64,000 bases of DNA from an uncultured Pseudomonadota bacterium. Lineage in GTDB: Bacteria > Pseudomonadota > Alphaproteobacteria > RF32 > CAG-239. Positions 16,376 through 56,401 of the stretch are shown here, piece by piece. Under the pieces are notes generated by a model. That model saw only the letters and a program-made list of their open reading frames with translations. It had not been told where the DNA came from and made no database searches. Location: contig CADAAN010000001.1 in assembly GCA_902785935.1 (NCBI GenBank), forward strand, positions 88,900-152,899. Reading direction: 5' to 3'. Within the stretch, counting starts at the first letter, position 1. Each line of letters begins with the position of its first letter. The position numbers were made by a program, and so were the translations under genes.

Positions 16376-16389
16376 ATACAAAAAAAGAC

Positions 16390-18031: not shown

Positions 18032-18250
18032 GGTGTTATAAAGATTTTTACGTAATCTGACCTCTGGGGGGATGGGGCATTCCTCTTGCCATCCCCTCTT
18101 TATGCCGCTTTACGTATGAGGCATAAAATTTATTTTCACTTCCGAATAGATAAAAAAATTCGTTTAGATCAAATTTTTTCAAATTTTTATCTTTTAAACC
18201 ATGTTCTAACAAATAGAGAAACATAAATTTTAGAAAGGAGGTGATTAAAA

Positions 18251-18469
18251 ATGTTGTATAGAGTTTTTGAATCTGATAATGTAAAAGTAAAGGATCCAAT
18301 ATATTTTTCTACGTCTTTTGACAATTTAGAAGAAGCATTACAGTGGTTTAACGATTTGACTGATACATATAAAGACAATCGCAAATCTTATGTTTCTTTG
18401 TGTGCAATTTTTGATGAAGATTACCCTAAAATCAAAAAAAAGACCAAAAGACAAAGTAAAAGTAAATAA
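18251..18469 (+). CDS. hypothetical small protein (72 aa)
   Basis: Preceded by an unusually strong SD (aaaggaggtgattaaaaATG) and followed by an intrinsic terminator. Confidence 0.5.
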   Translation: MLYRVFESDNVKVKDPIYFSTSFDNLEEALQWFNDLTDTYKDNRKSYVSLCAIFDEDYPKIKKKTKRQSKSK

Positions 18470-18492
18470 TAATAAACTTTAGTTACACAATA

Positions 18493-18529
18493 AGCCAACC
18501 GTATTTATAACTAACGGTTGGTTTTTTTA
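18493..18529 (+). terminator. intrinsic terminator
   Basis: ccaaccgt-loop-acggttgg 8-bp stem followed by T7. Confidence 0.65.
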
Positions 18530-18649
18530 TATTCCTACCAACTTCGAATCTAAACAAAATCAACTCAAATCAAATTTTTTATCAAATTTATTCATTCTCA
18601 CGAAAATTTTTTTTGATCTCAGCAGTTCTTACAAACAGGAGAACTGAAA

Positions 18650-19690: not shown

Positions 19691-19718
19691 TGTATTATTA
19701 TGCTTTACTTGATTGTGT

Positions 19719-20159
19719 TTATATTATTTGTACTGTTGGGTTAAAAATGCAAATCATATTGTCAAACATACCGCATTTATTAGTAACGGTTTGTCCGAAT
19801 GAGTTTACCCCTTCAAATCTAATTCTACCTTTAATGTATCGTATTTCACAGTTGGGTAATATAATCTCATGAAATATTTTAGTTGAAGTTGAAACAGGGA
19901 GTAACATTACAACGAGTTTATTTTTTAGGTATTCTGTATATGCTTTCCTAATGAATAAATCCTTTAGTGGTCTGGAATATGGTGGGTTAACAAAATTACT
20001 ATTACCCCATTCAACTTCTAAACCATTCCAAAGTTCCAGATTATGACAAAGAGGACACGGATCAAAGTCGAAATGGAACTCTTTATCCAGTTCTTCATAT
20101 AAATACTTTGGAGTTTTCCAATCATCCGTTACTGTCAAATTTCTATCTTTCATATTCAT
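19719..20159 (-). CDS. phage-type DNA N6-adenine methyltransferase (Dam, PF05869-like)
   Basis: 146 aa; FDFDPCP ... NPPYS catalytic motif order characteristic of phage N6A methyltransferases. Confidence 0.65.
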   Translation of the reverse strand: MNMKDRNLTVTDDWKTPKYLYEELDKEFHFDFDPCPLCHNLELWNGLEVEWGNSNFVNPPYSRPLKDLFIRKAYTEYLKNKLVVMLLPVSTSTKIFHEIILPNCEIRYIKGRIRFEGVNSFGQTVTNKCGMFDNMICIFNPTVQII

Positions 20160-20265
20160 ATAGAACTGGAATAAGCGGTAGTTAGCATAGATTCGGTGAT
20201 TATAACAACAAAAAAAAGAGGTATATAAAACACCTCTTTCAATGCTTTGGTTATTTAATGTATAC

Positions 20266-20592
20266 TCAAAATTCTGATGTTAGTAGTATACTTAGCACAC
20301 GATTGGTAAGCGTTATATCAGCAGGATTTGGCGATGCATATTCGTATTCTTTATCATAATAGTCTATTTTCCACATTATTTGCTTGCCGTTATAGTCAAA
20401 TTTTCCCATATCATGCTCAAAATAGGGATCGTTTGCTGTTGTGAAGTCATCATAAGTAGAAACTAAAAGCATAATAGCAGCTACATCCATCTTTGGTAAT
20501 GCTCTTATTCCTCTACTTAATACAACTTTTCCACCTGTAAAGTTTTTGCGGAAATCATCATTCAAATACCTGATAAGTTTTGTACTTCCCAT
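20266..20592 (-). CDS. hypothetical protein
   Basis: 108-aa ORF in the phage/plasmid-like module, RBS-like aggataaacaATG. Confidence 0.4.
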   Translation of the reverse strand: MGSTKLIRYLNDDFRKNFTGGKVVLSRGIRALPKMDVAAIMLLVSTYDDFTTANDPYFEHDMGKFDYNGKQIMWKIDYYDKEYEYASPNPADITLTNRVLSILLTSEF

Positions 20593-20606
20593 TGTTTATC
20601 CTAATT

Positions 20607-20738
20607 TTAATATAACGGAACTATTTCTGTAAAAACAGCTGCCGATTTCTTTTTTTCTTCATAACAAAAATCCATTGCTTGCCTTAAAGAATAAAACAGA
20701 AAAGGCATTCTGACGTTATTTATGATTACTTGGTACAT
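20607..20738 (-). CDS. possible small protein (43 aa) with strong SD
   Basis: ggaggataacaatATG on the minus strand (too short for the ORF track); MYQVIINNVRMPFLFYSLRQAMDFCYEEKKKSAAVFTEIVPLY. Confidence 0.3.
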   Translation of the reverse strand: MYQVIINNVRMPFLFYSLRQAMDFCYEEKKKSAAVFTEIVPLY

Positions 20739-20836
20739 ATTGTTATCCTCCTATCTATATTGGTTTTTAGATAACAGTATAGCATCGTTTCTTTATATAA
20801 GAACAGTAAAAAAAGTATGATTAATTTTTGTATGAA

Positions 20837-21220
20837 TTAAATTGATACAGGTTGATGCGAAAATATTAGTGCAACAACGTCTTTTCGTTTGTTTTGATCA
20901 ACTACTTTACCATTGATAAACCAAATCTTCGGGACATTACCAAGTATAAATTGGAAAAGCCGTGAACTTGTTGAAACCGAAAGAATTATAACAGAGTCAC
21001 GTCCACGCACAAATTCCCAAAATGCTTGTTCAACTGCCTGCGCCTTTTCTTTTTTGTTTTTGTTAAGTAGGTTTATGATATTGATATGGGCTGCAGAAGT
21101 ACCAAACTTAGAAGAATTTGAAAATGAGTGAAATATTTTTTGTTGTACTTCTGCAAGATTCATAGTCTTTACCAATGAAATGTTCCCATATCTTATTAAT
21201 AGAACTCGGTTTTTTAACAA
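20837..21220 (-). CDS. hypothetical protein
   Basis: 127-aa ORF, module context. Confidence 0.4.
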   Translation of the reverse strand: MLKNRVLLIRYGNISLVKTMNLAEVQQKIFHSFSNSSKFGTSAAHINIINLLNKNKKEKAQAVEQAFWEFVRGRDSVIILSVSTSSRLFQFILGNVPKIWFINGKVVDQNKRKDVVALIFSHQPVSI

Positions 21221-21408
21221 AAATTACTTGTCGACAACTTAAAAGTAATTTGCCCACAGATGATAAATCAGAAAACCGTCATAGAGTCGTTTTTAGACTC
21301 GCTGAGGTGGTGCTTCTGTTTTTTGTGGTAAACTTATGCTTGAAACCACGAATCACACCACAGAGTCCTTAAAACCAAAATAAATGGTATCAAAATTTAA
21401 AATTGGAT

Positions 21409-21762
21409 TTACTTTTTTGATTTACATAAACCTTCAATCTGTTTTTCCAGAATGTGCAGCGTGTTTTCATCTAATTTCCTTAATAACACTATGATACGGT
21501 TTATGGTGTTTTCGTTCGATTTTTTGTAATCAGAACTGTTAACATCATCAACATCAAGAATGGTAAGTAGGCTAACATCTAAGCTTTGAGCTATTTTTTT
21601 GAGTGTACTGATTTTCGGATCGCCTAAACCACGCTCTAAATTGGAAATTGTATTTACCACCCTTTCACATCTTGCGGCTAATTCCTCTTGGCTGACACCT
21701 TTTGTCTTTCTCAAAAAGGCTATTTTTCTTCCGATGTTATATATAAAATCGTCTTTATGCAT
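21409..21762 (-). CDS. XRE/Cro-C1-type helix-turn-helix transcriptional regulator
   Basis: HTH signature KGVSQEELAARCERVVNTISNLERG; divergent from the giant surface-protein gene. Confidence 0.7.
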   Translation of the reverse strand: MHKDDFIYNIGRKIAFLRKTKGVSQEELAARCERVVNTISNLERGLGDPKISTLKKIAQSLDVSLLTILDVDDVNSSDYKKSNENTINRIIVLLRKLDENTLHILEKQIEGLCKSKK

Positions 21763-21949
21763 TGGTTATACTCCACAAATGATGTTACTACCATTGCAGT
21801 TTATGTTCCACGCAACAAATTGGTATTTTTTAGTATTGACAATCCAAAAATACAAATATATTGTGATATATATAGTAATCTATTGTGAGATTTTAATCGT
21901 AGATTAGTATATAGCCATTATTACTGAACGCCACAGAGAGATACGTACT

Positions 21950-24900
21950 ATGAACTTGAATATAAAATTAATGCTTTTTATAGCAATTTTTTCTACTTTT
22001 TCCTATGAAACTCAGGCACGATATTTATCTACAGGTGATATTTATGAATATGCCAGAACTCGTAATTACTGGGCATTATCGAAAATTGCACGATATGTTG
22101 ATATGCAAGATGGTAGTGGTAACACAGCCTTGTGTTTAGCTGTTGCTAACAAAGATGAAAAAGCTTATAATGTTTTAATCCAGTATGGTGCAAATCCTCA
22201 ACCTTATTGTTTACAGTCGGCAATTGTGGCAAGTGGCAGCAGTGGAACATTTTTAGGTATGGGAACGACTGGGTGGCTAACCACAGGAGCAATAGTTGCC
22301 GCTGGCGCAGGAGTTGCAGCTGCTGCTGGTGGAGGCGGTGGCGGAGGTGGTTCGTCAGATTCATCATCTTCAAACAATCCCTCTCCATCAATTACTTGTG
22401 TAAATGGTTCAATAAGTAGTGGTCAATGCCAATGTGATGAAGGTTGGATTGGTGACACTTGTGACACAGTGCAAACCTGTTCTTATAATACAACATCATG
22501 TTCAAGTGGTTATGAAGAAACTGGTAATACATGCAAATCAGGCAGCATAACGTATAAAGAATGTAAAGCCAAAACAGTTCCGAGTGGATACACAATAACA
22601 CCATGTGGTGATGGTTATATGCAAATTGGTACATTTTTATCAGGAACACAGACTTATTACAAATGCCAAGCAAATACTTGCGCGGGATATCAATCCAGTT
22701 GCGGTGATGGTTATCATGCAACAACAGATACTTGTTTATCTGGTACAACAACTATGTATAAATGTGAAGCAAATGTGTGTGAAGGGTATGTGGATGGTTG
22801 TAGTTCGGGTTATCACGCAACAACAGACACTTGTTTGTCTGGTGCTAAAACTATGGTGAAGTGTGAAATCAATGATTGTTCTGAATACCAAACAAGTTGC
22901 GGTGAAGGATATAATGCAACACAAAGTTGTTTAAGTGGGAATACGCCATATTATACTTGTACACCAAAAGAAGTACCTACTGGGTATACCTCAACACCTT
23001 GCAGTGAAGGATATATTACAAAAGATACCATTATATCTGGTACAACACCTTATTATAAATGCGAAGTAAATGCTTGTACTGGATATGTGACAAGTTGTAA
23101 TCAAGGTTATCACACAACAGCGGATACTTGTAAATCAGGTTCAAAGACTATGTACAAATGTGAAGCTGATAGTTGTACTGGTTATAACTATACAGTTTGT
23201 CCAACGGGGTATGCGCAAAGTGATAGCTGCTTATCGGGTCTTACAATGAAGTATAAATGTGAGAATTGTGCAAACGGTTACGGAAGAGATGAAAAAGGTA
23301 ATTGTGTAACAAAAGAGGCAGATAAAGTCATAGCTACAGGAACCGCAAATAATATAGATCGTACTTATACTGATACCTTAACCATAAAAGGGTACAAAGA
23401 TTTATATGTTTTCAAAGGAAATTACACTTACGCTGCTAATGCTGAAACATCTGGGACATCTTCTTATCAAACAATAATTATGGACGTAATAAAAAAAGGA
23501 GATGGCGATTTCTATGGTGTGTTTAATAGTCAAGGTTCTAGCTATAATTCCAAAAACGCTGATGGAACTATCAAATTAGAAAAAACTGGTGACGGAGATG
23601 TGTATGCCCTTTGGGGAGAAGACGGTGTATCTAATTCGTCAGCATCAGGATCATATGGTGAGACAGCCACAGGTAATATTGAAATTTTGAATAACGGAAA
23701 TGGTAATATATATGGTGGTTATTCCAAAGAAGGTTCTACTATCAATGCATATTCAGGCAAATCATCAGGTATTGCTAATGGAGCAAGTACTGGTATCATA
23801 AAGATGTTAAATAATGGAGACGGAAATGTATACGGTTTACTATCCGATACAAAAACAGGAACTAACGCCAGTTCCGTTAATACTGTAGGCAAAAATTATA
23901 GCACTACATCCTCTGCAGAAGGACGTATAATTATCAATAATACAGGAGATGGTGACGTGTATGGAATTAAAAGCGGTTCGGATGTATATAATACCTCTAG
24001 CCTAATAAGAGGTGGTGCATCTGGTAGTGATATTAGATACGGAAATACAAATGTAGATGGATATATACGAATAAAGAACAGCGGAGGAGGAAATTCGTAT
24101 GGACTGTATGGTACAAACACGTATAGCTCATCATTTGAAAGTGATGCAGAATATACAACTGTTGTTGCCTTACAAACTTCTAATAGTGTAATAGATATTT
24201 TGAATTTAGGTAAAGGCAATGCATATGGTATGTATGCGGTAGGAACAAGCTCTGCCGTTGCCAAGGCCGAGAACCGTACTTATTCTGGCAGTTTTTCTCT
24301 TTATCCAGACCAAACGTATTCAGCAACATCCAATATTAAAATATTAAATAATGATGATGGATTTGTTGTAGGAATTTATAGCAAAGGAAAAGTTACAAAT
24401 GATGGCAATATTACTATTCATAATCTTGGAGAGGGAACAGCTATAGGAATTTATGCTGGTAATGCCATTCAAAATTCAACAGTAACAAATTCTGGAAGTA
24501 TCAATATTACACGTGTTAATTACATAGATGACAACGCTACACAAGATGATACATCAGATGATGAGAATTATACAGCTACATCTATGGCTGGTGGTACAAG
24601 TATCGGTATCTATGGGGCTTCAGGTTCAACAATTAAAAATACGGGGACGATTACAATTAGCGGAGCTTCCATAGCCTATGGTATTTATGCTGAATCGGGA
24701 GCAACAGTCAAAAATACTGGCACAATAACGATTGATGGTAATACAAATCATGTAAATAAAATCAAGCTTAACGGTTCACCGCTTTTTCAAGACGGTAAAC
24801 TGATTGTTACAAACAACACTCAAAGCAGTCTGATGTCTGTATCAAGTGTTAAACCAGCTTCACTAAATCTAAACGATTTTGGAGGAACTGTAGTAGCGTC

Positions 24901-26125
24901 TGATACTTCACAGTTTACTGTGGAAGGTGCGATATCTGGTGATTTGGCCATTAATAACAATGTGATTGAAAATGGTTTTGATACGACATATTCTGTAAAA
25001 GATATGATTCAGGCTTCTGATGCCAGTGGCTTAAATTTGCAATCACAATCGGCTTTATTTGATGCCTCGTTACAAAACAATACCGATGCCGTGATGACGA
25101 TGAAAGCGTTTAACGATGTGGTTGAAAACAGCTCGGTTGCCGACTTCTTACAAAAAAACTATGCAGCAAACAATAACGAAGATTTGTTCAAAGTTCTGAA
25201 ATCTGCCGAAACTGTGGCTCAACTCAACAGCAATATTGATGATTTGTTCGGCAAAGATATGCTTTCACGTATGGCGTTTGAAGATTTATCGATGCTCCGT
25301 GAAGTCAGTTTGGATATGAATAATCACCTATTCGAAAAAGAAGGTTCGTTTGCTTTCGGAGAAAATATATCGCCTTCAAGCTACGACAATAACATCGGAT
25401 CTGTAGGACGTTATTCATTGAATGGATATAATAATGGAAAAATGAGCTTTGGGCTTGGCGTATCAATCACCGATGTTAGCACTGATGACGGGCATAGTGA
25501 CAACCGACGCTTTGACCGTAGTTTTATGATGAGTGCTCCAATCGGCTATAAAACACACGGATTTGAGTTGATCACGGCTCCGAAAATGGGTTATACCGAT
25601 GGAACTTATGATCGTGAAGGCTTTAATAACAAGACTTATGAGGGCAAAATCCAAAAACGTATGTTCGCTTTGATGAATGAAGCACGTTACCCAATTAAAT
25701 TCGGTGGTTTAAGATTTACGCCAACGGCTGAATTTAATATGATTGGTTATAATATCAAAGGTCATGAGGACGAACAACAATATGCATTGCGGATTAAGTC
25801 ACAAAACCATTATTCGGTTGAAACAGGTCTTGGTTTGATGGCTGAAAAAGAGTTTAAGCCGTTCAAAAATCACAAGTTTAGCGTAAATGGCGGTGTTACG
25901 GTTTATCATGAATTTGCTAATCCGTATGAGCTTGATGTAGCTATGAGTGGTATGTCTGGTACGTATCGCTTACATGATGAAAAACGCAGCGACAATCGTG
26001 CCGTTGTTCGCTTAGGTTTTGATTATAAACTGAAAGATGATCTTGATGTTACGGCGCATTTGCTAACTAATATTGACCGTGAATATCGTACAGACGCTGG
26101 CATCGACTTGAAATATCACTTTTAG
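21950..26125 (+). CDS. giant surface protein: signal peptide, ankyrin repeats, Gly/Ala-rich hydrophobic segment, Cys-rich EGF-like tandem repeats, G(D/N)G(D/N)VYG passenger repeats, C-terminal autotransporter-type beta-barrel
   Basis: 1391 aa. N-terminus MNLNIKLMLFIAIFSTFSYETQA. Ankyrin-like SGNTALCLAVANKDEKAYNVLIQYGANP. Hydrophobic/G8 segment GAIVAAGAGVAAAAGGGGGGGGSS. 38-aa Cys repeats (C..GY....DTCLSG..TMYKCE). C-terminal ~280 aa with alternating beta-strand pattern ending ...DLKYHF (terminal aromatic). Confidence 0.8.
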   Translation: MNLNIKLMLFIAIFSTFSYETQARYLSTGDIYEYARTRNYWALSKIARYVDMQDGSGNTALCLAVANKDEKAYNVLIQYGANPQPYCLQSAIVASGSSGTFLGMGTTGWLTTGAIVAAGAGVAAAAGGGGGGGGSSDSSSSNNPSPSITCVNGSISSGQCQCDEGWIGDTCDTVQTCSYNTTSCSSGYEETGNTCKSGSITYKECKAKTVPSGYTITPCGDGYMQIGTFLSGTQTYYKCQANTCAGYQSSCGDGYHATTDTCLSGTTTMYKCEANVCEGYVDGCSSGYHATTDTCLSGAKTMVKCEINDCSEYQTSCGEGYNATQSCLSGNTPYYTCTPKEVPTGYTSTPCSEGYITKDTIISGTTPYYKCEVNACTGYVTSCNQGYHTTADTCKSGSKTMYKCEADSCTGYNYTVCPTGYAQSDSCLSGLTMKYKCENCANGYGRDEKGNCVTKEADKVIATGTANNIDRTYTDTLTIKGYKDLYVFKGNYTYAANAETSGTSSYQTIIMDVIKKGDGDFYGVFNSQGSSYNSKNADGTIKLEKTGDGDVYALWGEDGVSNSSASGSYGETATGNIEILNNGNGNIYGGYSKEGSTINAYSGKSSGIANGASTGIIKMLNNGDGNVYGLLSDTKTGTNASSVNTVGKNYSTTSSAEGRIIINNTGDGDVYGIKSGSDVYNTSSLIRGGASGSDIRYGNTNVDGYIRIKNSGGGNSYGLYGTNTYSSSFESDAEYTTVVALQTSNSVIDILNLGKGNAYGMYAVGTSSAVAKAENRTYSGSFSLYPDQTYSATSNIKILNNDDGFVVGIYSKGKVTNDGNITIHNLGEGTAIGIYAGNAIQNSTVTNSGSINITRVNYIDDNATQDDTSDDENYTATSMAGGTSIGIYGASGSTIKNTGTITISGASIAYGIYAESGATVKNTGTITIDGNTNHVNKIKLNGSPLFQDGKLIVTNNTQSSLMSVSSVKPASLNLNDFGGTVVASDTSQFTVEGAISGDLAINNNVIENGFDTTYSVKDMIQASDASGLNLQSQSALFDASLQNNTDAVMTMKAFNDVVENSSVADFLQKNYAANNNEDLFKVLKSAETVAQLNSNIDDLFGKDMLSRMAFEDLSMLREVSLDMNNHLFEKEGSFAFGENISPSSYDNNIGSVGRYSLNGYNNGKMSFGLGVSITDVSTDDGHSDNRRFDRSFMMSAPIGYKTHGFELITAPKMGYTDGTYDREGFNNKTYEGKIQKRMFALMNEARYPIKFGGLRFTPTAEFNMIGYNIKGHEDEQQYALRIKSQNHYSVETGLGLMAEKEFKPFKNHKFSVNGGVTVYHEFANPYELDVAMSGMSGTYRLHDEKRSDNRAVVRLGFDYKLKDDLDVTAHLLTNIDREYRTDAGIDLKYHF
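22670..23300 (+). repeat. intragenic tandem repeats (~114 bp / 38 aa Cys-rich units) inside the giant protein gene
   Basis: Near-identical nucleotide units, e.g. ggttatca(t/c)gcaacaacaga(t/c)acttgttt(a/g)tctggt... repeated. Confidence 0.7.
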
Positions 26126-26145
26126 CAATAACAACCGAAACGAAT

Positions 26146-26176
26146 CGACCGCTGCATTTATTTGTGGCGGTTTTTT
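26146..26176 (+). terminator. intrinsic terminator after giant protein gene
   Basis: ccgctgc-atttatttg-tggcgg hairpin followed by T6. Confidence 0.6.
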
Positions 26177-26344
26177 GTAATAGGTAGAAGTAAATGAGTA
26201 TATTTTATCGGTAATCTTAGGCGTACTTCAGTATTACCAAAAAAAATGCTCCAAAATGGTAATATTAAGGTTATTTTTTACTTGACAACTAAAAAGTAAA
26301 TGATATACTAAGACTATAATATTACTTTTTGAAAGGTTAGAACG

Positions 26345-26917
26345 ATGAAATTTTTATATGCTCGTGTTTCAAGTTCAGACGGTTCGCAAAAACTCGATCG
26401 TCAACTTGTGGAATCTGGTAAATATGATGAAATTTTTGAAGATTACGCTTCAGGTGGTTCAACAAATCGTCCTAAACTGCAAGAAATGTTGAAATGGATT
26501 AGAAAAGGTGATGTGGTGGAAGTTCATAGCATTGACCGCTTAGCAAGAAACATCAATGACCTACTGCAAATCGTTAAAACCATTACAGAAGAACGTCACG
26601 CTGAAATCTACTTTATCAAAGAAAATCTACGTTTTACTGATGATACCGATAATCCATTTAACAAACTAACCCTTCAAATCATAGGTAGTATAGCCGAATT
26701 TGAAAGAAATATGATTAAAATGCGTCAGAAGGAAGGTATTGCTATTGCCAAAGCAAAAGGTGTTTATTCTAAGGAACGGAGCAAAAAATTATCGCTATCC
26801 AAACAAGCCGAATTGAAAAAAGACATTCAAGATAAAGTCCGTGTATGTGAAATCCTCAAGAAATACGGAATAACGAAACCCACATATTATCGCTATAAAG
26901 CACAATGGGAAGAATAA
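26345..26917 (+). CDS. small serine recombinase (resolvase/invertase family) with C-terminal HTH
   Basis: 190 aa; N-terminal YARVSSSDGSQKLDRQ catalytic-serine motif; TTGACA-17-TATACT-like promoter upstream. Confidence 0.85.
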   Translation: MKFLYARVSSSDGSQKLDRQLVESGKYDEIFEDYASGGSTNRPKLQEMLKWIRKGDVVEVHSIDRLARNINDLLQIVKTITEERHAEIYFIKENLRFTDDTDNPFNKLTLQIIGSIAEFERNMIKMRQKEGIAIAKAKGVYSKERSKKLSLSKQAELKKDIQDKVRVCEILKKYGITKPTYYRYKAQWEE

Positions 26918-26946
26918 TAGTAAATGGTTGTAATTTTCCGAAGTTC

Positions 26947-27288
26947 TCAGCCAAAATCTTTCTTTAGGAGTTGTATATATTCTTCTATATGTGCAAGTAG
27001 CTGATCATCTAACTGGTAAATCGTTTGTATGACCTGATTTTCCTTCCTGATACGTGTGACTGATTTGTTTTTTGTTATCCGTGCGTCTAGTAATTCATCA
27101 ATACTTATATCAAAGTAATTAGCTAAAGCACAAACCAACTCTAACTTTGGTATTACTTTTCCTGTTTCCAAATTTGATATTGTTCTCCAACTGACACCTA
27201 CTGCTTCAGCTAATTGTTCTTGAGTTAGCTTTTTTGTTTTGCGTAATGCTTGAACTTTTGAACCAATTTGAACAGGATCAACAGTCAT
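26947..27288 (-). CDS. XRE-family HTH transcriptional regulator
   Basis: HTH LTQEQLAEAVGVSWRTISNLETGK; immediately downstream of the nuclease gene on the same strand. Confidence 0.7.
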   Translation of the reverse strand: MTVDPVQIGSKVQALRKTKKLTQEQLAEAVGVSWRTISNLETGKVIPKLELVCALANYFDISIDELLDARITKNKSVTRIRKENQVIQTIYQLDDQLLAHIEEYIQLLKKDFG

Positions 27289-27289
27289 T

Positions 27290-27757
27290 TTACTTTTTCT
27301 CTTTGGATTTTTTCAATACACTTGATGGTATGTACTTATTACAACCACCTTGATCAAGCATATATTGGTTAACATCAATCACACCAGCGGATTTTATGTC
27401 ATCCAGATACACTTTTCCTAAAATACGACCAAAAGAATCACGTTTTTCCCACTCAACCCGTATATACCGATGATCTTTAAGTAGATTTTTTAGCTGTTTC
27501 CGTGATTGCTTACCGTGTTTAATGACTTCATCAACCGACAAACCATAGTATTTTTGCTGAAATCTGGTGTTGCTATTCTTTCCTGTTTCATAGCAATCAA
27601 CATCCAGCAAGCGAATTTTAGTCGTTTCATTATTAACCAGAGCCGTCAATGTATCGCCATCGTTAATCTTGATGATAGTTGCAACAAATTCGTGTGCTGA
27701 TACCGATTGCACCAACAAAATCGTGAATAAAACCAGATAAAAAACCGTTTTTTTCAT
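27290..27757 (-). CDS. secreted thermonuclease (SNase/micrococcal-nuclease-like)
   Basis: Start placed at MKKTVFYLVLFTILLVQSVSA (signal peptide); SNase-type motifs (IKINDGDTLT...IRLLDVDCYE). Confidence 0.7.
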   Translation of the reverse strand: MKKTVFYLVLFTILLVQSVSAHEFVATIIKINDGDTLTALVNNETTKIRLLDVDCYETGKNSNTRFQQKYYGLSVDEVIKHGKQSRKQLKNLLKDHRYIRVEWEKRDSFGRILGKVYLDDIKSAGVIDVNQYMLDQGGCNKYIPSSVLKKSKEKK

Positions 27758-28370
27758 CAACTCTTCCATAAAAGAAGACCACCTTTTGATTAAGGCGGTC
27801 GGAGAGTTCAAAATCAAGTCTACGAGTTGATCCTTCCAACCTTTAGAGCAAAACTCCTATTGTATACGTTGGAAGCTCCCCGACCATCATCGGGGATATA
27901 TACATCATCAGCCTTTATACAAGCTGACAATGTTGTCGGCGTATATCCACACCGCGTAGACAGAGGTTTTGAAGCCCTCCGCACCTTTTCGGGCACTGAG
28001 CACAGAATAAACCTGTGCCTAACCAGACAATATAGCAAGAATCTTAAAAATCAATAAAAAAGGAGAAAGAAGTTAAAAAGCCTTCTAATTCCGTACATTT
28101 TACTCAGCTAAAATTTCCGTTTATGTCAGATAAATGGAAATTTATTTTCGAAAGTGTCGTCAAGAAAAGAATTCTAAAAATGTAACTAGCGACATTGGGT
28201 TTTCGTCCGCTAGGAGACCTTAGCTTAAGTTACAAAAATGAAAAACTTAGAAGAAGACATAAAAAAACTAATCGGTGCGACAGATGAAACGTTAGATCAA
28301 ACCGAAACATTATTTAAATTTACAAAAGCAATGGAATGTTTGAACAATTGTATAAAGGAGGGAAAAAACA

Positions 28371-29702
28371 ATGAAAGCAGTGACGTTTGCAAGAGTTTCG
28401 TCAAAATATCAGGAACAGAATTACAGTCTGGAAGGGCAAAATACACACCTTTTCAATTATGCCAAAGCAAATAAACTCGACGTTATAAAATCTTATGAGA
28501 TTTCTGAAAGTGCGACAAGAGGTGATCGCACAAAATTTAAGGAAATGATAGATTTTTGTTGTTCGCAAAAGGAATGTGTTTCAATCATAGTAGACGATGT
28601 TGACCGCCTTTTGAGAACGTTTTCGGATGCGCCAGAGATTGAAAAACTTGTACAAGAAGGACAAATAGAGATACATTTCTATAATACGTCTCTTATTTTG
28701 ACGAAAAATTCAACACCTGATGATTATTTAAAATTTCACGAATTAGTTTTAGATTCGGAAAAATATATAGCAAAGTTTAAGAAAAATACAGCTCGTGGTC
28801 GAAATGAAAAAGTTATGGAAAAATGTATGGCCGCTTGGAAAGCACCTTGTGGTTATGAGAATTTTGAGCAAGATGATAAAAAAAAATCGATTCGAAAAAA
28901 AGAACCAGATGCCACAAATCTAAAGAAACTTTTTGAACTTTATTCCTTAGGCGGAACATCAATTCGTAAATTAGTTGCTTTAGCTGATGAGTACGGAATC
29001 AAAACAAAAAATGGAAATAAAATTGGTGTATCCACTATGATTGGGATTTTAAAAAACCCGTTTTATTACGGAGAAATGTGTTATAATGGTAAATTATATC
29101 GACACAATCACGGTGCTATAATATCAAGAGAGTTATGGGAAGCTTGTCAAAAACAGCATAAGCTTCAATCATCAAAGTCATTCAAGCAAGGTCGAATTCC
29201 TTATCTGTATCGGAATGTTTTTAAGGATTGGTACAAAAACCTTACTTGCTCTTGTGAAACAAAGAAAAACAAGTATATCTATATAAGTTACTATAGAGAT
29301 TCTAAGTATAGGTCTTATGTGAATGAAAATGATATTAATGACCAAATTGTTAGCATTCTAAACCAAATTTCAATACCAAAAAATTTTATAGATGATTATA
29401 ATCTTTATATACAATCAACACAACAAGATGAAATTGCATTTAAAGCTGCTGAAAATGGGCATATCAAGGCTGAAATAACAAAATATGATAATAGATTAAG
29501 CAGATTACTTGATAGATTTCTTGATAATGAAATGCCAGAAGAAGAATATGAAAAGAAAAAGCAGGAATATGAAGAAGAAAAATCAAAACTCGAAAAGAAA
29601 ATCCAAAATCAAGGTACAATTGAACCTGATTCAAAACAAATTTCAACAGAATCAATTCATTTATTCTCTCGTTTAGGTGATTCCAAATGGGACTGGATAT
29701 AA
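28371..29702 (+). CDS. large serine recombinase (paralog A), probably frameshifted at its 3' end
   Basis: N-terminal catalytic domain (FARVSSKYQEQNYSLEGQ), recombinase domain and zinc-ribbon (APCGYENF...CSC), strong SD aaggaggg. The ORF stops at 29702 but homology to paralog B continues in another frame to ~29827 (NKQMLLRLIFKELKIRDG vs NKQLLLHFIFEKLELKEG). Confidence 0.8.
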   Translation: MKAVTFARVSSKYQEQNYSLEGQNTHLFNYAKANKLDVIKSYEISESATRGDRTKFKEMIDFCCSQKECVSIIVDDVDRLLRTFSDAPEIEKLVQEGQIEIHFYNTSLILTKNSTPDDYLKFHELVLDSEKYIAKFKKNTARGRNEKVMEKCMAAWKAPCGYENFEQDDKKKSIRKKEPDATNLKKLFELYSLGGTSIRKLVALADEYGIKTKNGNKIGVSTMIGILKNPFYYGEMCYNGKLYRHNHGAIISRELWEACQKQHKLQSSKSFKQGRIPYLYRNVFKDWYKNLTCSCETKKNKYIYISYYRDSKYRSYVNENDINDQIVSILNQISIPKNFIDDYNLYIQSTQQDEIAFKAAENGHIKAEITKYDNRLSRLLDRFLDNEMPEEEYEKKKQEYEEEKSKLEKKIQNQGTIEPDSKQISTESIHLFSRLGDSKWDWI

Positions 29703-29891
29703 AAAACAAGCAAATGTTACTGAGATTGATATTCAAAGAACTCAAGATTCGAGATGGAAATGTTGGGTATAGCCTTAACGAACCATTTTCCTATTTTATT
29801 AAACAAGAATCTCAAGCATCAGCATAACTTTATTAATTAATTTGATTAAATTTCGAAGCTCTGGTAAATTTACCAAAAAGGAAACGAAACT

Positions 29892-52846: not shown

Positions 52847-55800
52847 TTAAAATGCATACTTGAGGCCGATATCGGCTTTGGTGTTGTACTCGCTGTCAAT
52901 ATATGAAAAGATGTTTGCATAAATGGAGAGCTCTTTGACGTTGTATTCAAAGCTGTTTTTCAGCATGAAATAGTCCTTGCGGCGTCTTTCATCTTTAAGC
53001 AGATAAGCGCCTTCCATTTCACGCATTGAAACCTTTAAGTGATAAGGATCGCCAAATTCGTGATACATCATTAAAGTTGCGTTCATTTTGAGATTATCGT
53101 TGTTCTTTAAATCAAACTTTTTACCGATATTGACTCCGATACCGCTTTCAAGCGAAAAGGTATTTTGCTTTTTAATGCTCAGGGCAAAAGTTTTATTGTC
53201 CTCGCGGCCCTTGATTTGAGCCATGCTTGTATTAAGCGCAAATGTCGGTGAAACGTACCATCCGTCATTTTTGATAAGATAGCGTACCTCATTTGAAAAA
53301 CCGAAGGTTTGTTTTTCGATATGTCCGTCAAAACTTTGCTTGGCAAAACCGTCTCGCGTGTAGGTTCCGTAAGCATAGCCGATATGCGGCATGGATAAAA
53401 TCTCAAATCCGTCCTTTTCATACCCCAAAGGCATCATCATTTGAAAGTTTTCATCTTTTCGGGCAGGCTTAGAGGCATCGCGTTTTTGACGGCGTGTCGT
53501 TAAAGAAAGGCCTATGCCGAAGGTTTTGCCGTTTTCTTTTTTGCCGCTTAACATCCATGTTGAACGCGCATCTGATGTGTCTTTTAAGTAAAAAGGCTTT
53601 GTGTCACCCGTTAAAGCAAAATCAGACTTTGTATTGGCAAAAAACGCATCGCTGATATCAAAATTTAAGGTCTTTAAGGCCATCATATCGTCAAATGCAA
53701 AATCTTTTAAGCTGTCGCCCGTCAAATCATTCAGAGCGTTTTCAATGCCGCTGACATTTGTTTGCGATTTTAAGAGGCCGTAAAAAGCCTCATTGTTTTT
53801 TAAGGTATAGTTCTCTTCCAAAAAGTCGGCAAGAGAAGCGTTGTCCGTCAAATCAGAAAAAGCTTTTTTGCTCAATACGACATCGTTGCCGTTAAGCGAA
53901 GCGTCAAATAATGCCGATTCCGAGCTTAAATGAAGTGCGCTTGCGTCATCGGCATTAATTGCATTTTCAAGCGTATATGTTTGATTAAATCCGTTTTGAA
54001 CCGCATCTGTACCGATATTTAAGTTACCGGAAATACTGCCTTGAGCTGTAAAGCGGCCGGTTGATGTAAGTTTTACCCCGCCGGAACCTAAATTAAGTGA
54101 GCTTAAAGAAACGATGTTGCCGTCGTTAACGAGTGTTGCGCCGCTTTCAAGATAAATCGCTTTATCACCAAAAGGTGTCGTGCATCCTGAAGACGTGCAA
54201 TAAGTGCTGTAATTTGTACTGTTAAGCGCACTGTTGTTGATTGAAATAACAAACGTATCTTTAATGGTAACAACCGCGTTGTTTTTTGCCCAAATGCCAT
54301 ACGTTGTGACACCATCTTGTCCATAAACATCAATACGTCCCGAATTTGTGACGCTTCCGCCGTCACTGTATATGCCGCAGGCAATACCCGATGAGCCCGT
54401 GTTTTTGACATAAACGGATTTATCCGGAAATGTGGCTGAATTTGTGACATTGCCGCCGACATTATAAATGCCATAAACATTGCCGTCATAAGTTGTGGCT
54501 AAAATCGAAGACGTGTTATCGATTGCTGAATTGCCGCTTGCATAAATGCCGTAAGCGTCACCTTTTGTTGTTGAAACAATTAAAGCACCGCTCGATGTCC
54601 CCCAAGAATTTGTAAATGTAGCGTCCTTGATGTAAGCTCCGTAAACATCATTTCCGTTGCTTTGAATCATTATTTGTCCGCCGTTTGAAATTGTACCCCC
54701 GTTTAGTGCGTGAATGCCGTATGCTTTGGCATTTGTTGATGTCACGTCAAGATAATTTGAGGAGATTAAAGAACCGTTTGAGGCGCTGAAAATACCATAA
54801 GCGTTGCCGTTAACCGATTCGACCGATGACGGATATGACAAGGTCACATCACCCTCAGCATAAAATCCGTAAGCATCTCCTGACGCCGCTTTGGCCGATA
54901 AAAGCGCTCCGCTTACAACAGAACCCTTTGAATAAAGCCCGTAAACACTGCCGCTGCCTGTACTTTTGGCTATAACGGAAGATGTTAATGTGGCAAGAGT
55001 GTGTGTTATGTTATCAGTGTCAGTATAGGATTGCGAGCTGTTTTCATTATAAATTGTGCCTGATGTTGCTCCGTTATATATGCCGTACACATCGCCGCTG
55101 CCGGCATTTGAAACATTAACAACACTATCCATAAAAAGTGAAGAATAAACATTTTTTGAACTATCTTCATCATCTTCATAATATCCGGCCGTACCATCAA
55201 AATAAGTATTGTAAATGTTGCCGTTGCCGTAAATACCATATACTTTTCCGTCGCCGTTTGAGGTGATTGAAACAGAAGCGTCTAAAGTGCCTTGAACAAT
55301 ACCGTTTTCAAGATAGATATAGTTGTTATAAATATCCGTTGCTGTTGCGGAATACATACCGTAAACATTACCGCTGCCGTTTTTTATAGCCTTGATTGTT
55401 GAAGTTTTTGAGCCGATGCTATGCAAAGGTGTGTCATCTCCAACGATGGATGTCGCACCCTCATCCGTTAAGTATTTGTAGGTATTAACAAATGTTGTTT
55501 GGTCGAGATTTGGCGCACGCTCGCCGTAAGTGTCTTCTGCATCATAAAACAAACCAAAAACATTTTGGTATGTTGTGCTGTTTAAGGATATATTGCCCGT
55601 TTGGTTATAGTTTGTATTAACATTGTTACCAAGCATCGGAGCACTTTGAATAACACATTCGCCGATTGCATTGTATCCGTAACCTGAAGCGCAGGCGCCG
55701 CAATTTGTGCCGGTGTATCCCTCATCGCACTTGCAAACAGCACCGATTTGTACGCCGTGACCGCAATCGTCAATTGTTTTGTAACAATCAGGTGTGCCGT

Positions 55801-56401
55801 AATGTCCGTAGCCCGAAGCACAATCATTACACTTATCGCCGGCATAACCTGTGTAACACGTGCAAACGCCTGAATCATTGTAATACCCGTGGACACAGTT
55901 CGGATCTGTGGAACTCCCGCCGCCACCGCCACCACCGCCGGAAACAGCTAAAGCCGTACCTCCGGCAACAGCGGCAATGCCTGCTCCGATTAAAGCTTTT
56001 GTCTTCCAGCTCATGGCGGGTTTGCCATATTTAGCCATGGCTGCCGTATCTTGATTTTTAACCGGATTTGACACGACCGATTGCATAAAATCACGATAAC
56101 CATTGATTTCCCAAGTGCATTCGTGTGAAGGGTTGGCACCCGCCATTAAAAATGTTTTATACGCGCGTCTATTCCCCCTTTTGGCAGCAACGCACAAACC
56201 AGTATCACCATTTGCATTGACAGAATCAATATACATCCCGCGACTGACGGCATTTGTAATGACATCGACATTTCCGGCAGCCGCATAGGCATAAAGCCGC
56301 TCAAAGCTTTCGGGAGATAAACGTGGAATATAGGCAAAAGCCTTTGATGTCATCAGACATAAAAAGCCGGTTAAGACAAAACAAAAGCGCTTCAATCTCA
56401 T
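52847..56401 (-). CDS. giant surface protein paralog: signal peptide, ankyrin repeats, Gly/Ala-rich hydrophobic segment, EGF-like Cys-rich region, G.G.VYG passenger repeats, autotransporter-type beta-barrel
   Basis: 1184 aa. Signal peptide MRLKRFCFVLTGFLCLMTSKAFA, ankyrin-like GDTGLCVAAKRGNRRAYKTFLMAGANP, hydrophobic/G8 segment ALIGAGIAAVAGGTALAVSGGGGGGGGSS, Cys-rich C.C..GY.G..C..C region. C-terminal ~280 aa barrel ending ...GLKYAF. Same architecture as the 21950-26125 product. Confidence 0.8.
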   Translation of the reverse strand: MRLKRFCFVLTGFLCLMTSKAFAYIPRLSPESFERLYAYAAAGNVDVITNAVSRGMYIDSVNANGDTGLCVAAKRGNRRAYKTFLMAGANPSHECTWEINGYRDFMQSVVSNPVKNQDTAAMAKYGKPAMSWKTKALIGAGIAAVAGGTALAVSGGGGGGGGSSTDPNCVHGYYNDSGVCTCYTGYAGDKCNDCASGYGHYGTPDCYKTIDDCGHGVQIGAVCKCDEGYTGTNCGACASGYGYNAIGECVIQSAPMLGNNVNTNYNQTGNISLNSTTYQNVFGLFYDAEDTYGERAPNLDQTTFVNTYKYLTDEGATSIVGDDTPLHSIGSKTSTIKAIKNGSGNVYGMYSATATDIYNNYIYLENGIVQGTLDASVSITSNGDGKVYGIYGNGNIYNTYFDGTAGYYEDDEDSSKNVYSSLFMDSVVNVSNAGSGDVYGIYNGATSGTIYNENSSQSYTDTDNITHTLATLTSSVIAKSTGSGSVYGLYSKGSVVSGALLSAKAASGDAYGFYAEGDVTLSYPSSVESVNGNAYGIFSASNGSLISSNYLDVTSTNAKAYGIHALNGGTISNGGQIMIQSNGNDVYGAYIKDATFTNSWGTSSGALIVSTTKGDAYGIYASGNSAIDNTSSILATTYDGNVYGIYNVGGNVTNSATFPDKSVYVKNTGSSGIACGIYSDGGSVTNSGRIDVYGQDGVTTYGIWAKNNAVVTIKDTFVISINNSALNSTNYSTYCTSSGCTTPFGDKAIYLESGATLVNDGNIVSLSSLNLGSGGVKLTSTGRFTAQGSISGNLNIGTDAVQNGFNQTYTLENAINADDASALHLSSESALFDASLNGNDVVLSKKAFSDLTDNASLADFLEENYTLKNNEAFYGLLKSQTNVSGIENALNDLTGDSLKDFAFDDMMALKTLNFDISDAFFANTKSDFALTGDTKPFYLKDTSDARSTWMLSGKKENGKTFGIGLSLTTRRQKRDASKPARKDENFQMMMPLGYEKDGFEILSMPHIGYAYGTYTRDGFAKQSFDGHIEKQTFGFSNEVRYLIKNDGWYVSPTFALNTSMAQIKGREDNKTFALSIKKQNTFSLESGIGVNIGKKFDLKNNDNLKMNATLMMYHEFGDPYHLKVSMREMEGAYLLKDERRRKDYFMLKNSFEYNVKELSIYANIFSYIDSEYNTKADIGLKYAF

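Follow-up and report, generated by a model that had tools for sequence, protein, structure and literature searches.

The closest described relatives of the proteins discussed here are the type Va autotransporters, including AaaA and EstA of P. aeruginosa, EspP of E. coli and NalP of N. meningitidis. These proteins combine an N-terminal Sec signal and a long, repeat-built passenger with a C-terminal barrel of 12 long strands, which is preceded by a helix and ends in an aromatic residue. Further elements are added at the N-terminus of some type V substrates. In NalP and SphB1 the passenger is kept at the cell surface by a lipid anchor, behind which comes a flexible spacer. The ESPR (PF13018) is a 25-residue extension upstream of the signal peptide and is removed together with it. 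In T5SS proteins the ESPR is believed to give the precursor a transient anchor in the inner membrane and to preserve its competence for secretion, while the final location of the lipid anchor in lipidated autotransporters is undetermined (PMC8151025). Other elaborations include the disulfide-bonded periplasmic anchor of some TpsA proteins and the chlamydial Pmp proteins, type Va autotransporters whose passengers consist of short-motif repeats with an unusually high Cys content, up to 18 Cys (PMC8151025).

Two genes of an uncultured low-GC rumen alphaproteobacterium, A and B, extend this repertoire, and their assignment as classical type Va autotransporters is strongly supported. Both lie in the window, the whole 64,000-nucleotide stretch of DNA that was analysed, at the coordinates and on the strands given by an earlier sequence-only reading, and every element of the shared architecture described there could be located in both proteins. 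Their proposed paralogy is equally clear, with a BLASTP alignment of 361 bits (E=9e-109, 30% identity over ~1080 columns) and a separate HSP for the N-termini (E=4e-8). A promoter-like site (21836-21864) lies ahead of gene A and a terminator-like hairpin (26147-26172) past it, and a protein on an independent ENA contig (P0002) is 100% identical to A. The features are listed below, with their basis in parentheses.

21950..26125, +, gene A, 1391-aa autotransporter, whole ORF including stop codon (ORF list)
21950..22018, +, A: predicted Sec-type signal peptide, residues 1-23, MNLNIKLMLFIAIFSTFSYETQA, followed by RY (aligned family members)
22019..22234, +, A: two-repeat ankyrin-like unit, residues 24-95, with invariant C62 and C87 (AF2, Foldseek, family profile)
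22271..22327, +, A: uncharged Gly/Ala/Val hydrophobic core, residues 108-126, GWLTTGAIVAAGAGVAAAA (Hessa dG, KD)
22328..22351, +, A: poly-Gly run (G8), residues 127-134, then a Ser-rich linker up to residue 149
22397..23305, +, A: Cys-rich EGF-like array, residues 150-452, 34 Cys (Cys positions, repeat units)
23306..24829, +, A: passenger of 9 'I.I.N.GDGDVYGIY' rung repeats, residues 453-960, presumed beta-solenoid (motif positions)
24830..25339, +, A: conserved junction and helical linker region, residues 961-1130 (BLASTP alignment, family conservation, AF2)
25340..26122, +, A: type Va autotransporter beta-barrel, residues 1131-1391, ending KYHF (PF03797, TIGR01414, AF2, Foldseek)
52847..56401, -, gene B, 1184-aa paralogous autotransporter, whole ORF including stop codon (ORF list, BLASTP against A)
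56072..56401, -, B: predicted signal peptide (residues 1-23) and ankyrin-like unit (residues 24-110; C70, C95) (alignment A1, Cys positions)
55916..55996, -, B: hydrophobic core, residues 136-154, ALIGAGIAAVAGGTALAVS, plus G8, residues 155-162 (dG, six-frame scan)
55655..55897, -, B: EGF-like Cys-rich region, residues 169-249, 12 Cys (EGF_laminin, Cys positions)
53627..55654, -, B: rung-repeat passenger (6 motifs) and junction, residues 250-925 (motif positions)
52850..53626, -, B: type Va autotransporter beta-barrel, residues 926-1184, ending KYAF (PF03797, TIGR01414)

Profile matches and modelling strongly support a C-terminus built as a PF03797-family barrel with a helical linker ahead of it and a terminal aromatic residue. 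Both proteins exceed the cut-offs of PF03797 (A 78.9 bits, B 56.6 bits, cut-off 26) and TIGR01414 (A 35.4 bits, B 39.7 bits, cut-off 16), and PF03797 matches 21 of 27 family C-termini. The AF2 model of the C-terminus of A (pLDDT 90, pTM 0.83) contains 12 long strands, and Foldseek places its barrel closest to AaaA (9.5e-12) and EstA (1.8e-11), followed by EspP, NalP, Hbp, AIDA-I and BrkA, at a sequence identity to solved barrels of only 10-16%. The barrel family profile likewise matches the AaaA autotransporter 9oqa (E=2.3e-4), and close fragments carry the NCBI name 'autotransporter outer membrane beta-barrel domain-containing protein'. The earlier suggestion of an autotransporter-like barrel with a terminal Phe is thus upheld, whereas that of a new autotransporter subtype is overstated for a translocator that is an ordinary type Va barrel. 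What is new in A and B is an accessory leader and a Cys-rich passenger, making them a variant within a well-known secretion system and not a separate one. Unlike known type Va proteins, they carry a conserved leader of ankyrin unit, hydrophobic segment and poly-Gly between signal peptide and passenger, and a passenger that combines EGF-like Cys arrays with a rung motif recognised by no family model.

The passengers are exceptionally Cys-rich. The array of A includes seven readily delimited 33-34-aa units of the form 'C.GY...C..GY.....C.SG...YKC'; its matches to EGF_Teneurin and EGF_2 are sub-threshold, and a comparison with PDB sequences gave no match. The Cys-rich region of B scores 33.5 bits with EGF_laminin against a cut-off of 21, so that the EGF-like character proposed for both proteins is supported at family-model level in B and stays below threshold in A. 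In their type Va barrel, repeat passenger and unusual Cys content, A and B resemble the chlamydial Pmp proteins, but they have more Cys residues (34 in A; a median of 20 and a maximum of 140 in the family), which are organised in EGF-like modules. Of the Pmp signatures, neither protein has GGA(I/L/V) motifs or a POMP_repeat match, and each has only three F..N motifs. The predicted passenger of G(D/N)G(D/N)VYG repeats is evident as the rung motif 'I-x-I-x-N-x-G-D-G-D-V-Y-G-I-Y', which occurs 9 times in A and 6 times in B at a spacing of about 30-50 aa. The rung passenger has no Pfam, NCBIfam or PDB match in A and no Pfam or NCBIfam match in B; its designation as a probable beta-solenoid adhesin derives from the rung motif. 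Between rungs and barrel, the junction is 44% identical in A and B (75 of 170 aligned positions, counted in the BLASTP alignment), and in A it is modelled with helices, including one at 1108-1124 right before the barrel.

Within the window the leader is found at the A and B loci only (six-frame scan). Beyond it, the leader and the layout recur in over 80 non-identical homologues, all metagenome-derived, from Alphaproteobacteria of the rumen and gut. The presence of the fusion in other genomes, put forward earlier as a point to check, is thus borne out, and the layout is not a product of chance or of a chimeric assembly. All complete leader-bearing proteins end in a barrel-like C-terminus. Sequence comparison strongly supports a conserved family architecture that runs from signal peptide, ankyrin unit, uncharged Gly/Ala segment and poly-Gly through an EGF-like Cys array, where present, to rung-repeat passenger and barrel. 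Its N-terminal module, comprising the two-repeat ankyrin unit, the uncharged segment and the poly-Gly run, is conserved and undescribed.

The family alignment also gives strong support to a canonical Sec signal peptide at the start of each protein, in line with the cleavable look noted earlier, with cleavage predicted at AxA-type sites (between ETQA and RY in A, between KAFA and YI in B). In alignment A1, which holds 35 diverse family members with B as its second row, both the n-h-c layout and the A-x-A-type column after the first hydrophobic region are conserved. The unit that follows is, again with strong support, modelled as a two-repeat ankyrin fold. AF2 builds two helix pairs and a cap in A (pLDDT 94-98), and the best 50 Foldseek matches of this model are ankyrin proteins without exception. 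Searched against PDB, profile A1 gives 426 matches, of which the best 60 are all ankyrin-repeat proteins, and Ank_2 matches 24 of the 35 members at E<0.1. Taken alone, A (16.9 bits against 21.1) and B (Ank_2 E=0.13) fall below the Pfam ankyrin cut-offs; the two repeats named earlier therefore stand at the level of family profile and fold and not at that of the single proteins. Profile matches also include AnkB of P. aeruginosa (9iq8) and Bd3460 of Bdellovibrio (5cea), at E about 4e-9, and the AF2 model of the unit finds both as well. Since we take these two to be Sec-exported periplasmic proteins with signal peptides, the premise that ankyrin repeats are typically cytosolic-effector modules is too strong. 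AnkB and Bd3460 share with A and B a short ankyrin-repeat unit; they are small stand-alone periplasmic proteins, whereas in A and B the unit is the N-terminal domain of a 1200-1400 aa outer-membrane-barrel protein. A pair of Cys residues is invariant in the unit, spaced by 25 residues in 71 of 81 members (C62/C87 in A).

Behind the ankyrin unit lies the uncharged stretch, which ends in exactly G8 in A and B, as described at the outset. Its hydrophobic core is marginal, with a Hessa dG of +3.4 kcal/mol and a KD of 1.43 in A, +2.2 kcal/mol and 1.82 in B, and dG values of about -0.1 to +6 across the family. In A it is modelled as a low-confidence helix, and a pLDDT of about 50 leaves its helicity uncertain. 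A mere low-complexity linker seems a poor description of a segment that is strictly uncharged over a median of 26 aa (up to 47) in 80 distinct sequences and is followed by 5-11 Gly residues in nearly all members, the small members P0249-P0251 being without the run.

Could this segment be the true signal? It would then act as signal or anchor of a giant, bipartite, ESPR-like signal peptide cleaved within the poly-Gly/Ser run, with the first region and the ankyrin unit left in the cytoplasm. Upstream K/R residues, an uncharged h-like region and small G and S residues do form an n-h-c-like series in the correct charge orientation, and ESPR signal peptides have two hydrophobic regions as well. We nevertheless regard this as very improbable. 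The first region is a canonical signal peptide whose A-x-A is conserved in nearly all of the 35 members, the uncharged stretch far exceeds the h-region of signal peptides, and the invariant Cys pair points to an oxidising compartment. PF13018 matches neither A, B nor the family leaders, and the match to 5cea, one of the two proteins taken to be Sec-exported, begins at profile position 1, that is, with the signal peptide. A very long signal-peptide extension, one of the options first raised, is unlikely on the same grounds. The leader does resemble the ESPR in being an N-terminal addition on type V substrates, but it differs in lying downstream of the predicted canonical cleavage site, in having a predicted folded domain and in probably staying in the mature protein.

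The segment is also unlikely to be an inner-membrane anchor, given its marginal hydrophobicity and flanking charges that oppose a stop-transfer orientation. Over 80 members, the 12 residues upstream contain on average 1.54 K/R and 0.79 D/E, the 20 residues downstream 1.05 K/R and 2.83 D/E, and 66 of the 80 have their more positive flank upstream. A genuine stop-transfer helix would leave the ankyrin unit periplasmic and the rest of the protein cytoplasmic, with no functional autotransporter. Kyte-Doolittle values that are transmembrane-like in some members (that of B; up to 2.12) speak for it, but it is hardly conceivable when the charge bias runs opposite to the positive-inside rule and the Hessa dG is positive. 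A well-conserved barrel above curated thresholds and with an aromatic end would make no sense in the cytoplasm, and a 34-Cys passenger of EGF-like modules needs an oxidising compartment.

The pattern of conservation offers a further clue to function. In bits per residue, the ankyrin unit scores 0.68, the junction 0.92, the barrel 0.92, the rungs 0.43 and the Cys array 0.12; judged by these alignments, conservation of the leader roughly equals that of the barrel and is far above that of the passenger, though low-complexity composition inflates the score of the leader's Gly/Ala segment. This leader also occurs on Peptidase_S8 passengers that have a different C-terminal domain. Conservation on a par with the translocation unit points to a role in biogenesis or anchoring, and together with reuse on unrelated passengers it favours a device for biogenesis or tethering over a variable binding tip as the most likely function. 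Adhesive tips usually evolve fastest, and a unit common to adhesin-like and subtilase passengers fits such a tip poorly. Even so, secretion of the whole mature protein through the barrel is the default topology for type Va passengers, and the ankyrin unit, with only two repeats, is small. The leader may thus come to sit at the distal tip of the passenger, for if disulfide-bonded EGF-like arrays cross the outer membrane, a small ankyrin unit could too; because the Cys-rich array must cross in any model, size and disulfide limits cannot be very strict. The ankyrin unit would then cap the outermost end of the fibre and bind a ligand there, and the Gly/Ala segment would either be a mere spacer or act on membranes or associate with itself, in the manner of a fusion peptide or a glycine zipper. 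The segment is rich in small-xxx-small motifs (median 6), but no Pfam glycine-zipper family matches the leader. On this evidence a distal cap is possible, though we consider it doubtful.

Retention in the periplasm, the second of the options first raised, or in the outer membrane is a further reading. A disulfide-stapled ankyrin unit unable to pass the barrel would stay periplasmic, the segment would partition into the outer membrane or rest against the periplasmic side of it, and poly-Gly, which has no side chains, would thread through that membrane, so that the passenger is held at both ends, or still tethered once cleaved off the barrel. The invariant Cys pair, the position of the poly-Gly run immediately past the hydrophobic segment and the conservation of the leader are all consistent with such an arrangement, but a second strand would hardly fit into a 12-stranded pore that already holds the linker helix. 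The small members without poly-Gly also speak against it, and we know of no mechanism for helix insertion into the outer membrane. The periplasmic disulfide-bonded terminal anchor of some TpsA proteins is a precedent, and the topology of lipid-anchored autotransporters is undetermined (PMC8151025). Overall, retention appears unlikely, more so than a distal cap.

The best explanation of the whole, and in our view a fairly probable one, remains a type Va autotransporter with an exported ankyrin leader that serves in biogenesis or tethering. The precursor would cross the inner membrane via Sec and lose residues 1-23 to signal peptidase I, which would bring the ankyrin unit into the periplasm, where its Cys pair could form a stapling disulfide. 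The Gly/Ala segment, too weakly hydrophobic and with its flanking charges the wrong way round, would not act as a stop-transfer anchor. BAM would insert the barrel, and the rung passenger would be threaded out C-to-N and fold as a beta-solenoid to give a surface adhesin. Most likely, the leader would provide a membrane-interacting tether at the N-terminus, with flexible Gly/Ser residues as a spacer behind it. In function this would parallel the lipid anchor that NalP and SphB1 carry at their N-termini, or the transient anchoring in the inner membrane that the ESPR is credited with. As in the lipidated NalP and SphB1, a putative membrane-interacting element would stand at the extreme N-terminus of the passenger. 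The likeness would be one of function only, as a lipobox is absent from A and B and their putative anchor is a peptide segment behind a predicted folded ankyrin unit. Some family members do carry a subtilase passenger, as NalP and SphB1 do.

Two paralogous open reading frames, each with an ATG start in the ORF listing, lie on opposite strands of the window, the GC content of which is 37.1%.

21950-26125, plus strand: gene A, product A of 1391 aa
52847-56401, minus strand: gene B, product B of 1184 aa

BLASTP aligns the two products at 361 bits (E=9e-109) with 30% identity over ~1080 columns; the C-terminal ~420 residues align best, and the N-termini form an HSP of their own at E=4e-8. The sequence-only reading had ascribed to both proteins a signal peptide, two ankyrin repeats, a Gly/Ala-rich stretch ending in a glycine run, an EGF-like Cys-rich region, a repeat passenger and a beta-barrel-like C-terminus, and each of these elements is indeed found in A and also in B. 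The ankyrin-like (Ank) unit reads 'GNTALC...GAN....C' in A and 'GDTGLC...GAN....C' in B. An uncharged Gly/Ala/Val stretch closes with exactly eight glycines in both, directly followed by a Ser-rich spacer. Cysteines number 34 within residues 150-452 of A and 12 within residues 169-249 of B, and the passenger repeats take the form of a rung motif, 'I-x-I-x-N-x-G-D-G-D-V-Y-G-I-Y', that occurs nine times in A and six times in B at a spacing of ~30-50 residues. Signal peptide, Ank unit, Gly/Ala segment and poly-Gly together form what is here called the leader, and a six-frame scan confines its motifs to these two loci within the window.

By every testable criterion, A and B belong to the classical autotransporter family. 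When the C-terminal 330 aa are scanned alone, both proteins exceed the gathering score of 26 bits for PF03797, the autotransporter domain that had been proposed for them (A 78.9 bits, E=6.7e-22; B 56.6 bits), as well as the cut-off of 16 bits for TIGR01414 (A 35.4 bits; B 39.7 bits), and PF03797 is matched by 21 of 27 diverse family C-termini. In full length, neither A nor B gives an autotransporter match in Pfam or NCBIfam. Because the isolated C-termini pass both models, this result is a false negative; long repetitive proteins can lose strong domain matches, and negatives from full-length scans are therefore not to be trusted. Searched against PDB sequences, the C-terminal family profile has one match, the P. 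aeruginosa autotransporter AaaA (9oqa; E=2.3e-4). An AF2 model of the barrel with the family alignment as input (mean pLDDT 90.0, pTM 0.83) predicts N-terminal helices, the one at model residues 47-63 immediately preceding the sheet, along with 12 long strands (residues 91-328) and a short additional strand (71-79), in line with the 12-strand barrel expected of such a domain. Foldseek against the PDB ranks AaaA first (9.5e-12; query-normalised TM-score 0.72), followed by EstA (query-normalised TM-score 0.68), EspP, NalP, Hbp, AIDA-I and BrkA, with a probability of 1.00 for both AaaA and EstA. Close fragments have been named 'autotransporter outer membrane beta-barrel domain-containing protein' by the NCBI pipeline. 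A ends in ...KYHF and B in ...KYAF, and the terminal Phe is invariant in the alignment of family C-termini. From profile and model, the C-termini of A and B are predicted to be bona fide type Va autotransporter barrels.

The other end of the proteins departs from this familiar plan. By inspection of 35 aligned family members, the signal peptide has an n-h-c layout with a conserved A-x-A column. [quoted passage not shown] The extra module of A and B sits downstream of the signal-peptide cleavage site, and it is very improbable that the leader as a whole acts as a giant bipartite signal peptide. Taken alone, both proteins miss the Pfam cut-offs for ankyrin repeats (A: Ank 16.9 bits vs 21.1, Ank_2 15.9 bits vs 27.3; B: Ank_2 13.3 bits, below 27.3), and Ank_2 appears at E<0.1 in 24 of 35 family members; the ankyrin assignment made from the sequence is thus borne out by the family profile and the modelled fold rather than by either protein on its own. 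The consensus of the 35 diverse N-termini, 'IYxYAxxxNxxALxxxxxxIDxxDxxGNTALCxAxxxxDxxAYxxLxxxGANxxxxC', agrees with that of the helix-turn-helix ankyrin repeat, G-x-TPLH-x-A ... GA-x-x-N. Its profile yields 426 matches against the PDB (best 3.6e-19), and each of the 60 listed is an ankyrin-repeat protein. The same profile, run against 1.84 billion representative proteins, yields 63,550 matches, mostly giant ankyrin proteins, among which the informative ones are those that span the full profile in a single stretch, the rest being generic. In the AF2 model, residues 28-94 of A form two helix pairs with a capping helix (pLDDT 94-98), and the top 50 Foldseek matches are all ankyrin proteins, at probabilities up to 0.99 and E-values of only 0.1-0.5 for so short a unit. 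On both profile and model, the N-terminal unit is predicted to have an ankyrin fold.

The sequence-only reading had found this fold topologically puzzling, on the premise that ankyrin repeats are typically cytosolic. Its barrel and its ankyrin fold both stand; the premise does not. Matches to the profile or the model include P. aeruginosa AnkB (9iq8) and Bdellovibrio Bd3460 (5cea), both of them Sec-exported periplasmic proteins, so that ankyrin repeats need not mean a cytosolic location. Furthermore, the Ank unit has two invariant cysteines, one in place of the His of TPLH and the other after GANxxxx, with a spacing of exactly 25 residues in 71 of 81 non-identical members, and nearly all members carry a canonical signal peptide with the conserved A-x-A column before it. 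Given the signal peptide, the invariant cysteines and their fixed spacing, the unit is almost certainly exported to the periplasm, where the two cysteines would presumably form a disulfide.

Between the Ank unit and poly-Gly lies a stretch that lacks D, E, K, R, H, N, Q and P, with a median length of 26 residues (range 16-47) across 80 non-identical members. It is composed of 28% A, 24% G, 12% V and 10% T, with Trp as a frequent first residue; 5-11 glycines and then a Ser/Asp-rich spacer come after it. The segment is only marginally hydrophobic: the best 19-mer has a Hessa dG of +3.4 kcal/mol in A and +2.2 kcal/mol in B (family about -0.1 to +6), and the Kyte-Doolittle mean is 1.43 in A and 1.82 in B (family 1.08-2.12). 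Such a segment might be taken for a real inner-membrane stop-transfer anchor. A stop-transfer helix after a cleaved signal peptide must be N-out/C-in, and the flanking charges disfavour this orientation. In the same 80 members the upstream 12 residues hold on average 1.54 K/R and 0.79 D/E, the downstream 20 residues 1.05 K/R and 2.83 D/E, and the upstream flank is the more positive in 66. Because, in addition, the barrel must reach the outer membrane, a permanent inner-membrane anchor appears very unlikely from the sequences, and the stop-transfer reading is scarcely credible. AF2 renders the segment as a helix at only ~50 pLDDT and poly-Gly as disordered, and no family N-terminus matches a Pfam glycine-zipper family. 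The worry that the segment could be a low-complexity linker rather than a transmembrane or signal element is half answered, in that it is more than a generic linker.

The passenger is no less unusual. As a rule, autotransporter passengers are Cys-poor, and the chlamydial Pmps have been singled out as notable for up to 18 cysteines in the passenger (PMC8151025). In the present family the passenger holds a median of 20 and a maximum of 140 cysteines, and 43 of the 81 members exceed 18. The count is even in 58 of 81 (p=1e-4, for sequences that are related to one another), and the barrels of these members almost never contain Cys. The Cys array of B matches EGF_laminin (33.5 bits vs a cut-off of 21), and that of A reaches EGF_Teneurin below threshold (18.7 bits vs 24.3). 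Most of the array of A is built from four-Cys units of 33-34 aa, 'C.GY...C..GY.....C.SG...YKC', of which seven can readily be delimited; the units are matched by no family model and no PDB sequence. Likewise, the passengers of A and B and the Cys-rich region of A have no match above cut-off in Pfam, NCBIfam or PDB sequences. Many homologues carry a precomputed PF27417 annotation, to which a 2200-aa group adds PF27415; fragments place PF27417 ahead of the barrel, in the rung or junction region, and a Pfam family may therefore exist already for part of that passenger. Passengers that hold 20-140 cysteines in EGF-like modules are at odds with the size and disulfide limits accepted for type V secretion, and with this family one could test how modules of this kind pass through the outer membrane. 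Likeness to the Pmps is limited: GGA[ILV] motifs are absent from A and B, F..N motifs number only three in each, and neither passenger matches POMP_repeat or NCBIfam models.

A search with A returns 107 clusters, all from uncultured Alphaproteobacteria, with the source labels 'Alphaproteobacteria bacterium' and 'Azospirillum sp.' from gut samples. A single-protein genome scan finds four loci only, all in rumen MAGs (roe-deer, cattle), and further relatives occur in human gut, for instance in a Hadza sample. The fusion is accordingly not confined to this genome: leader and barrel recur together across the homologues, nearly all complete members having the leader at the start and an aromatic residue at the end, and short matches are contig-end fragments. 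One 1722-bp contig (L003, JAFUTM010000277.1) encodes a barrel 84% identical to that of A; its place in a 'Selenomonadaceae' MAG most probably reflects an error of binning, not a transfer to a Firmicute. Five members (P0141, P0167, P0211, P0219, P0228) have two tandem Ank units. Three complete proteins of ~750 aa (P0249-P0251) consist of signal peptide, Ank unit, a more hydrophobic segment (…LVAAGVLIGGIIAIG…) and barrel, without poly-Gly and without the Cys-rich array, and define the minimal architecture of the family. In a Peptidase_S8 subgroup (P0084, P0101, P0106 and P0107, scanned or annotated), a subtilase passenger follows the same Ank/hydrophobic/poly-Gly leader and EGF-like array, and P0167, P0211 and P0228, which have the same leader, are placed with them by C-terminal sequence. 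This subgroup ends in a different domain of ~330 aa (...PDYRALFGLSWRY) with no Pfam and no PDB match; compared with the autotransporter barrel, of which it might be a divergent form, it reaches an hhalign probability of 0.2%. The alternating hydrophobic pattern suggests another outer-membrane barrel, and the domain may represent an undescribed outer-membrane translocator family. The leader itself appears, from these arrangements, to be portable between passenger types.

Conservation across the family, region by region, relative to A (bits per residue)
Ank unit: 0.68
Hydrophobic segment and poly-Gly: 1.14, inflated by composition
Junction: 0.92
Barrel: 0.92
Rung region: 0.43
Cys array: 0.12

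These scores bear on the idea that the leader is a ligand-binding cap at the distal tip of the passenger. The leader does occupy the passenger end that is translocated last; its conservation shows it to be constrained like the translocation unit, unlike a fast-evolving adhesive tip, and the cap is a somewhat doubtful proposition.

Of the Gram-negative secretion routes, type V is considered the simplest and the best understood, and its substrates are used for surface display. To this route the family adds a new conserved element, a folded Ank unit with Gly/Ala segment and poly-Gly. The best guess for the leader, tentative and at a little under even odds, is a role in biogenesis or tethering, a reading that takes in its retention version. 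Following Sec export, signal peptidase I would cleave at about residue 23, the Gly/Ala segment would pass through the Sec channel, and the Ank unit would reside in the periplasm, stapled by its disulfide. BAM would insert the barrel, and the passenger would be threaded C-to-N, fold as a rung-repeat beta-solenoid and act as an adhesin, with the leader as a membrane-interacting N-terminal element followed by a Gly/Ser spacer. The overlapping retention version, in which the Ank unit is held in the periplasm or outer membrane while poly-Gly threads the latter, seems unlikely; a precedent of principle is offered by those TpsA proteins that keep a disulfide-bonded end in the periplasm (PMC8151025). 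In its most explicit form, rather improbable as it stands, the leader would be an N-terminal stopper or anchor defining an 'N-tethered' type Va secretion. The disulfide-stapled Ank unit would remain in the periplasm, side-chain-free poly-Gly would span the membrane, and the Gly/Ala helix would partition into the outer membrane, for example from the lateral seam of the BAM-barrel, such lateral exit amounting to a stop-transfer event at the outer membrane. The passenger would then be displayed as a loop held at both ends, or would still be attached after cleavage. If true, type V secretion would also handle passengers with dozens of disulfide-forming cysteines, against the Cys-poor rule.

Among known systems, a leader that serves in biogenesis or tethering would be a functional counterpart of the lipid anchor in NalP and SphB1, with the difference that A and B are without a lipobox. 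The final leaflet of that anchor is undetermined (PMC8151025). This leader bears on a question that concerns lipidated autotransporters too (PMC8151025), namely the final location of an N-terminal anchor and its contribution to secretion competence or surface retention. Its role may also be compared with the transient inner-membrane anchoring ascribed to the ESPR (PMC8151025). The ESPR, however, is a ~25-residue extension upstream of the signal peptide, whereas the module of A and B lies downstream of the cleavage site. The searchable literature yielded no precedent for ankyrin-autotransporter fusions, glycine zippers in autotransporters or EGF-like autotransporters, and neither the conserved leader nor the disulfide-rich EGF-like passenger has a precedent in the literature searched.

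The two genes occupy different surroundings. Gene A lies in a ~15-kb island between two tRNA genes, in which several 2-kb bins fall to 31-32% GC.

16299-16375: tRNA-Arg
20266-20592: DUF3768 gene
21409-21762: XRE regulator
21836-21864: promoter-like site of gene A
26147-26172: terminator-like hairpin of gene A
26345-26917: small resolvase
26947-27288: XRE regulator
27290-27817: SNase-like gene
28371-29702: large serine recombinase
29892-31583: large serine recombinase
31514-31587, minus strand: tRNA-Gln

The stretch 16299-31587 looks like an integrative mobile element with the autotransporter as cargo. A distant homologue on a Hadza human-gut contig (P0017; L006 8152-16022) likewise has a small resolvase, DUF3768, a large serine recombinase, Dam and a DNA methylase nearby. 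The likeness of the two neighbourhoods indicates that the association of autotransporter and element is conserved across hosts, and that the A-type copy is mobile-element cargo. The adjacent small resolvase might have served an invertible, phase-variable promoter, but the idea was set aside because neither gene A nor the region upstream of it is flanked by convincing inverted repeats. Tandem repeats in the DNA of gene A are confined to the poly-Gly codons, the protein repeats having diverged at the DNA level.

Gene B is found among core genes, with obg-like and rsfS-like ORFs downstream (identified by eye from translations) and a Tim44-like gene upstream. Repeat proteins of eukaryotic type are encoded nearby and elsewhere in the window.

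31894-32913, plus strand: BspA-type LRR (LRR_5) protein
48853-50046, minus strand: Sel1-repeat protein
56495-57397, minus strand: BspA-type LRR (LRR_5) protein, immediately upstream of gene B

With these LRR_5 and Sel1 genes, the window is rich in eukaryote-like repeat proteins. The carriers are abundant uncultured rumen and gut Alphaproteobacteria, and the presence of eukaryote-like Ank, EGF, BspA-LRR and Sel1 proteins in such bacteria suggests interaction with a host or with protists. The window also encodes an AsmA-family protein (7846-10086, minus strand), of a family concerned with outer-membrane biogenesis or lipid transport, and the Tim44-like domain protein (57718-58404, plus strand), both of which are typical of Alphaproteobacteria.
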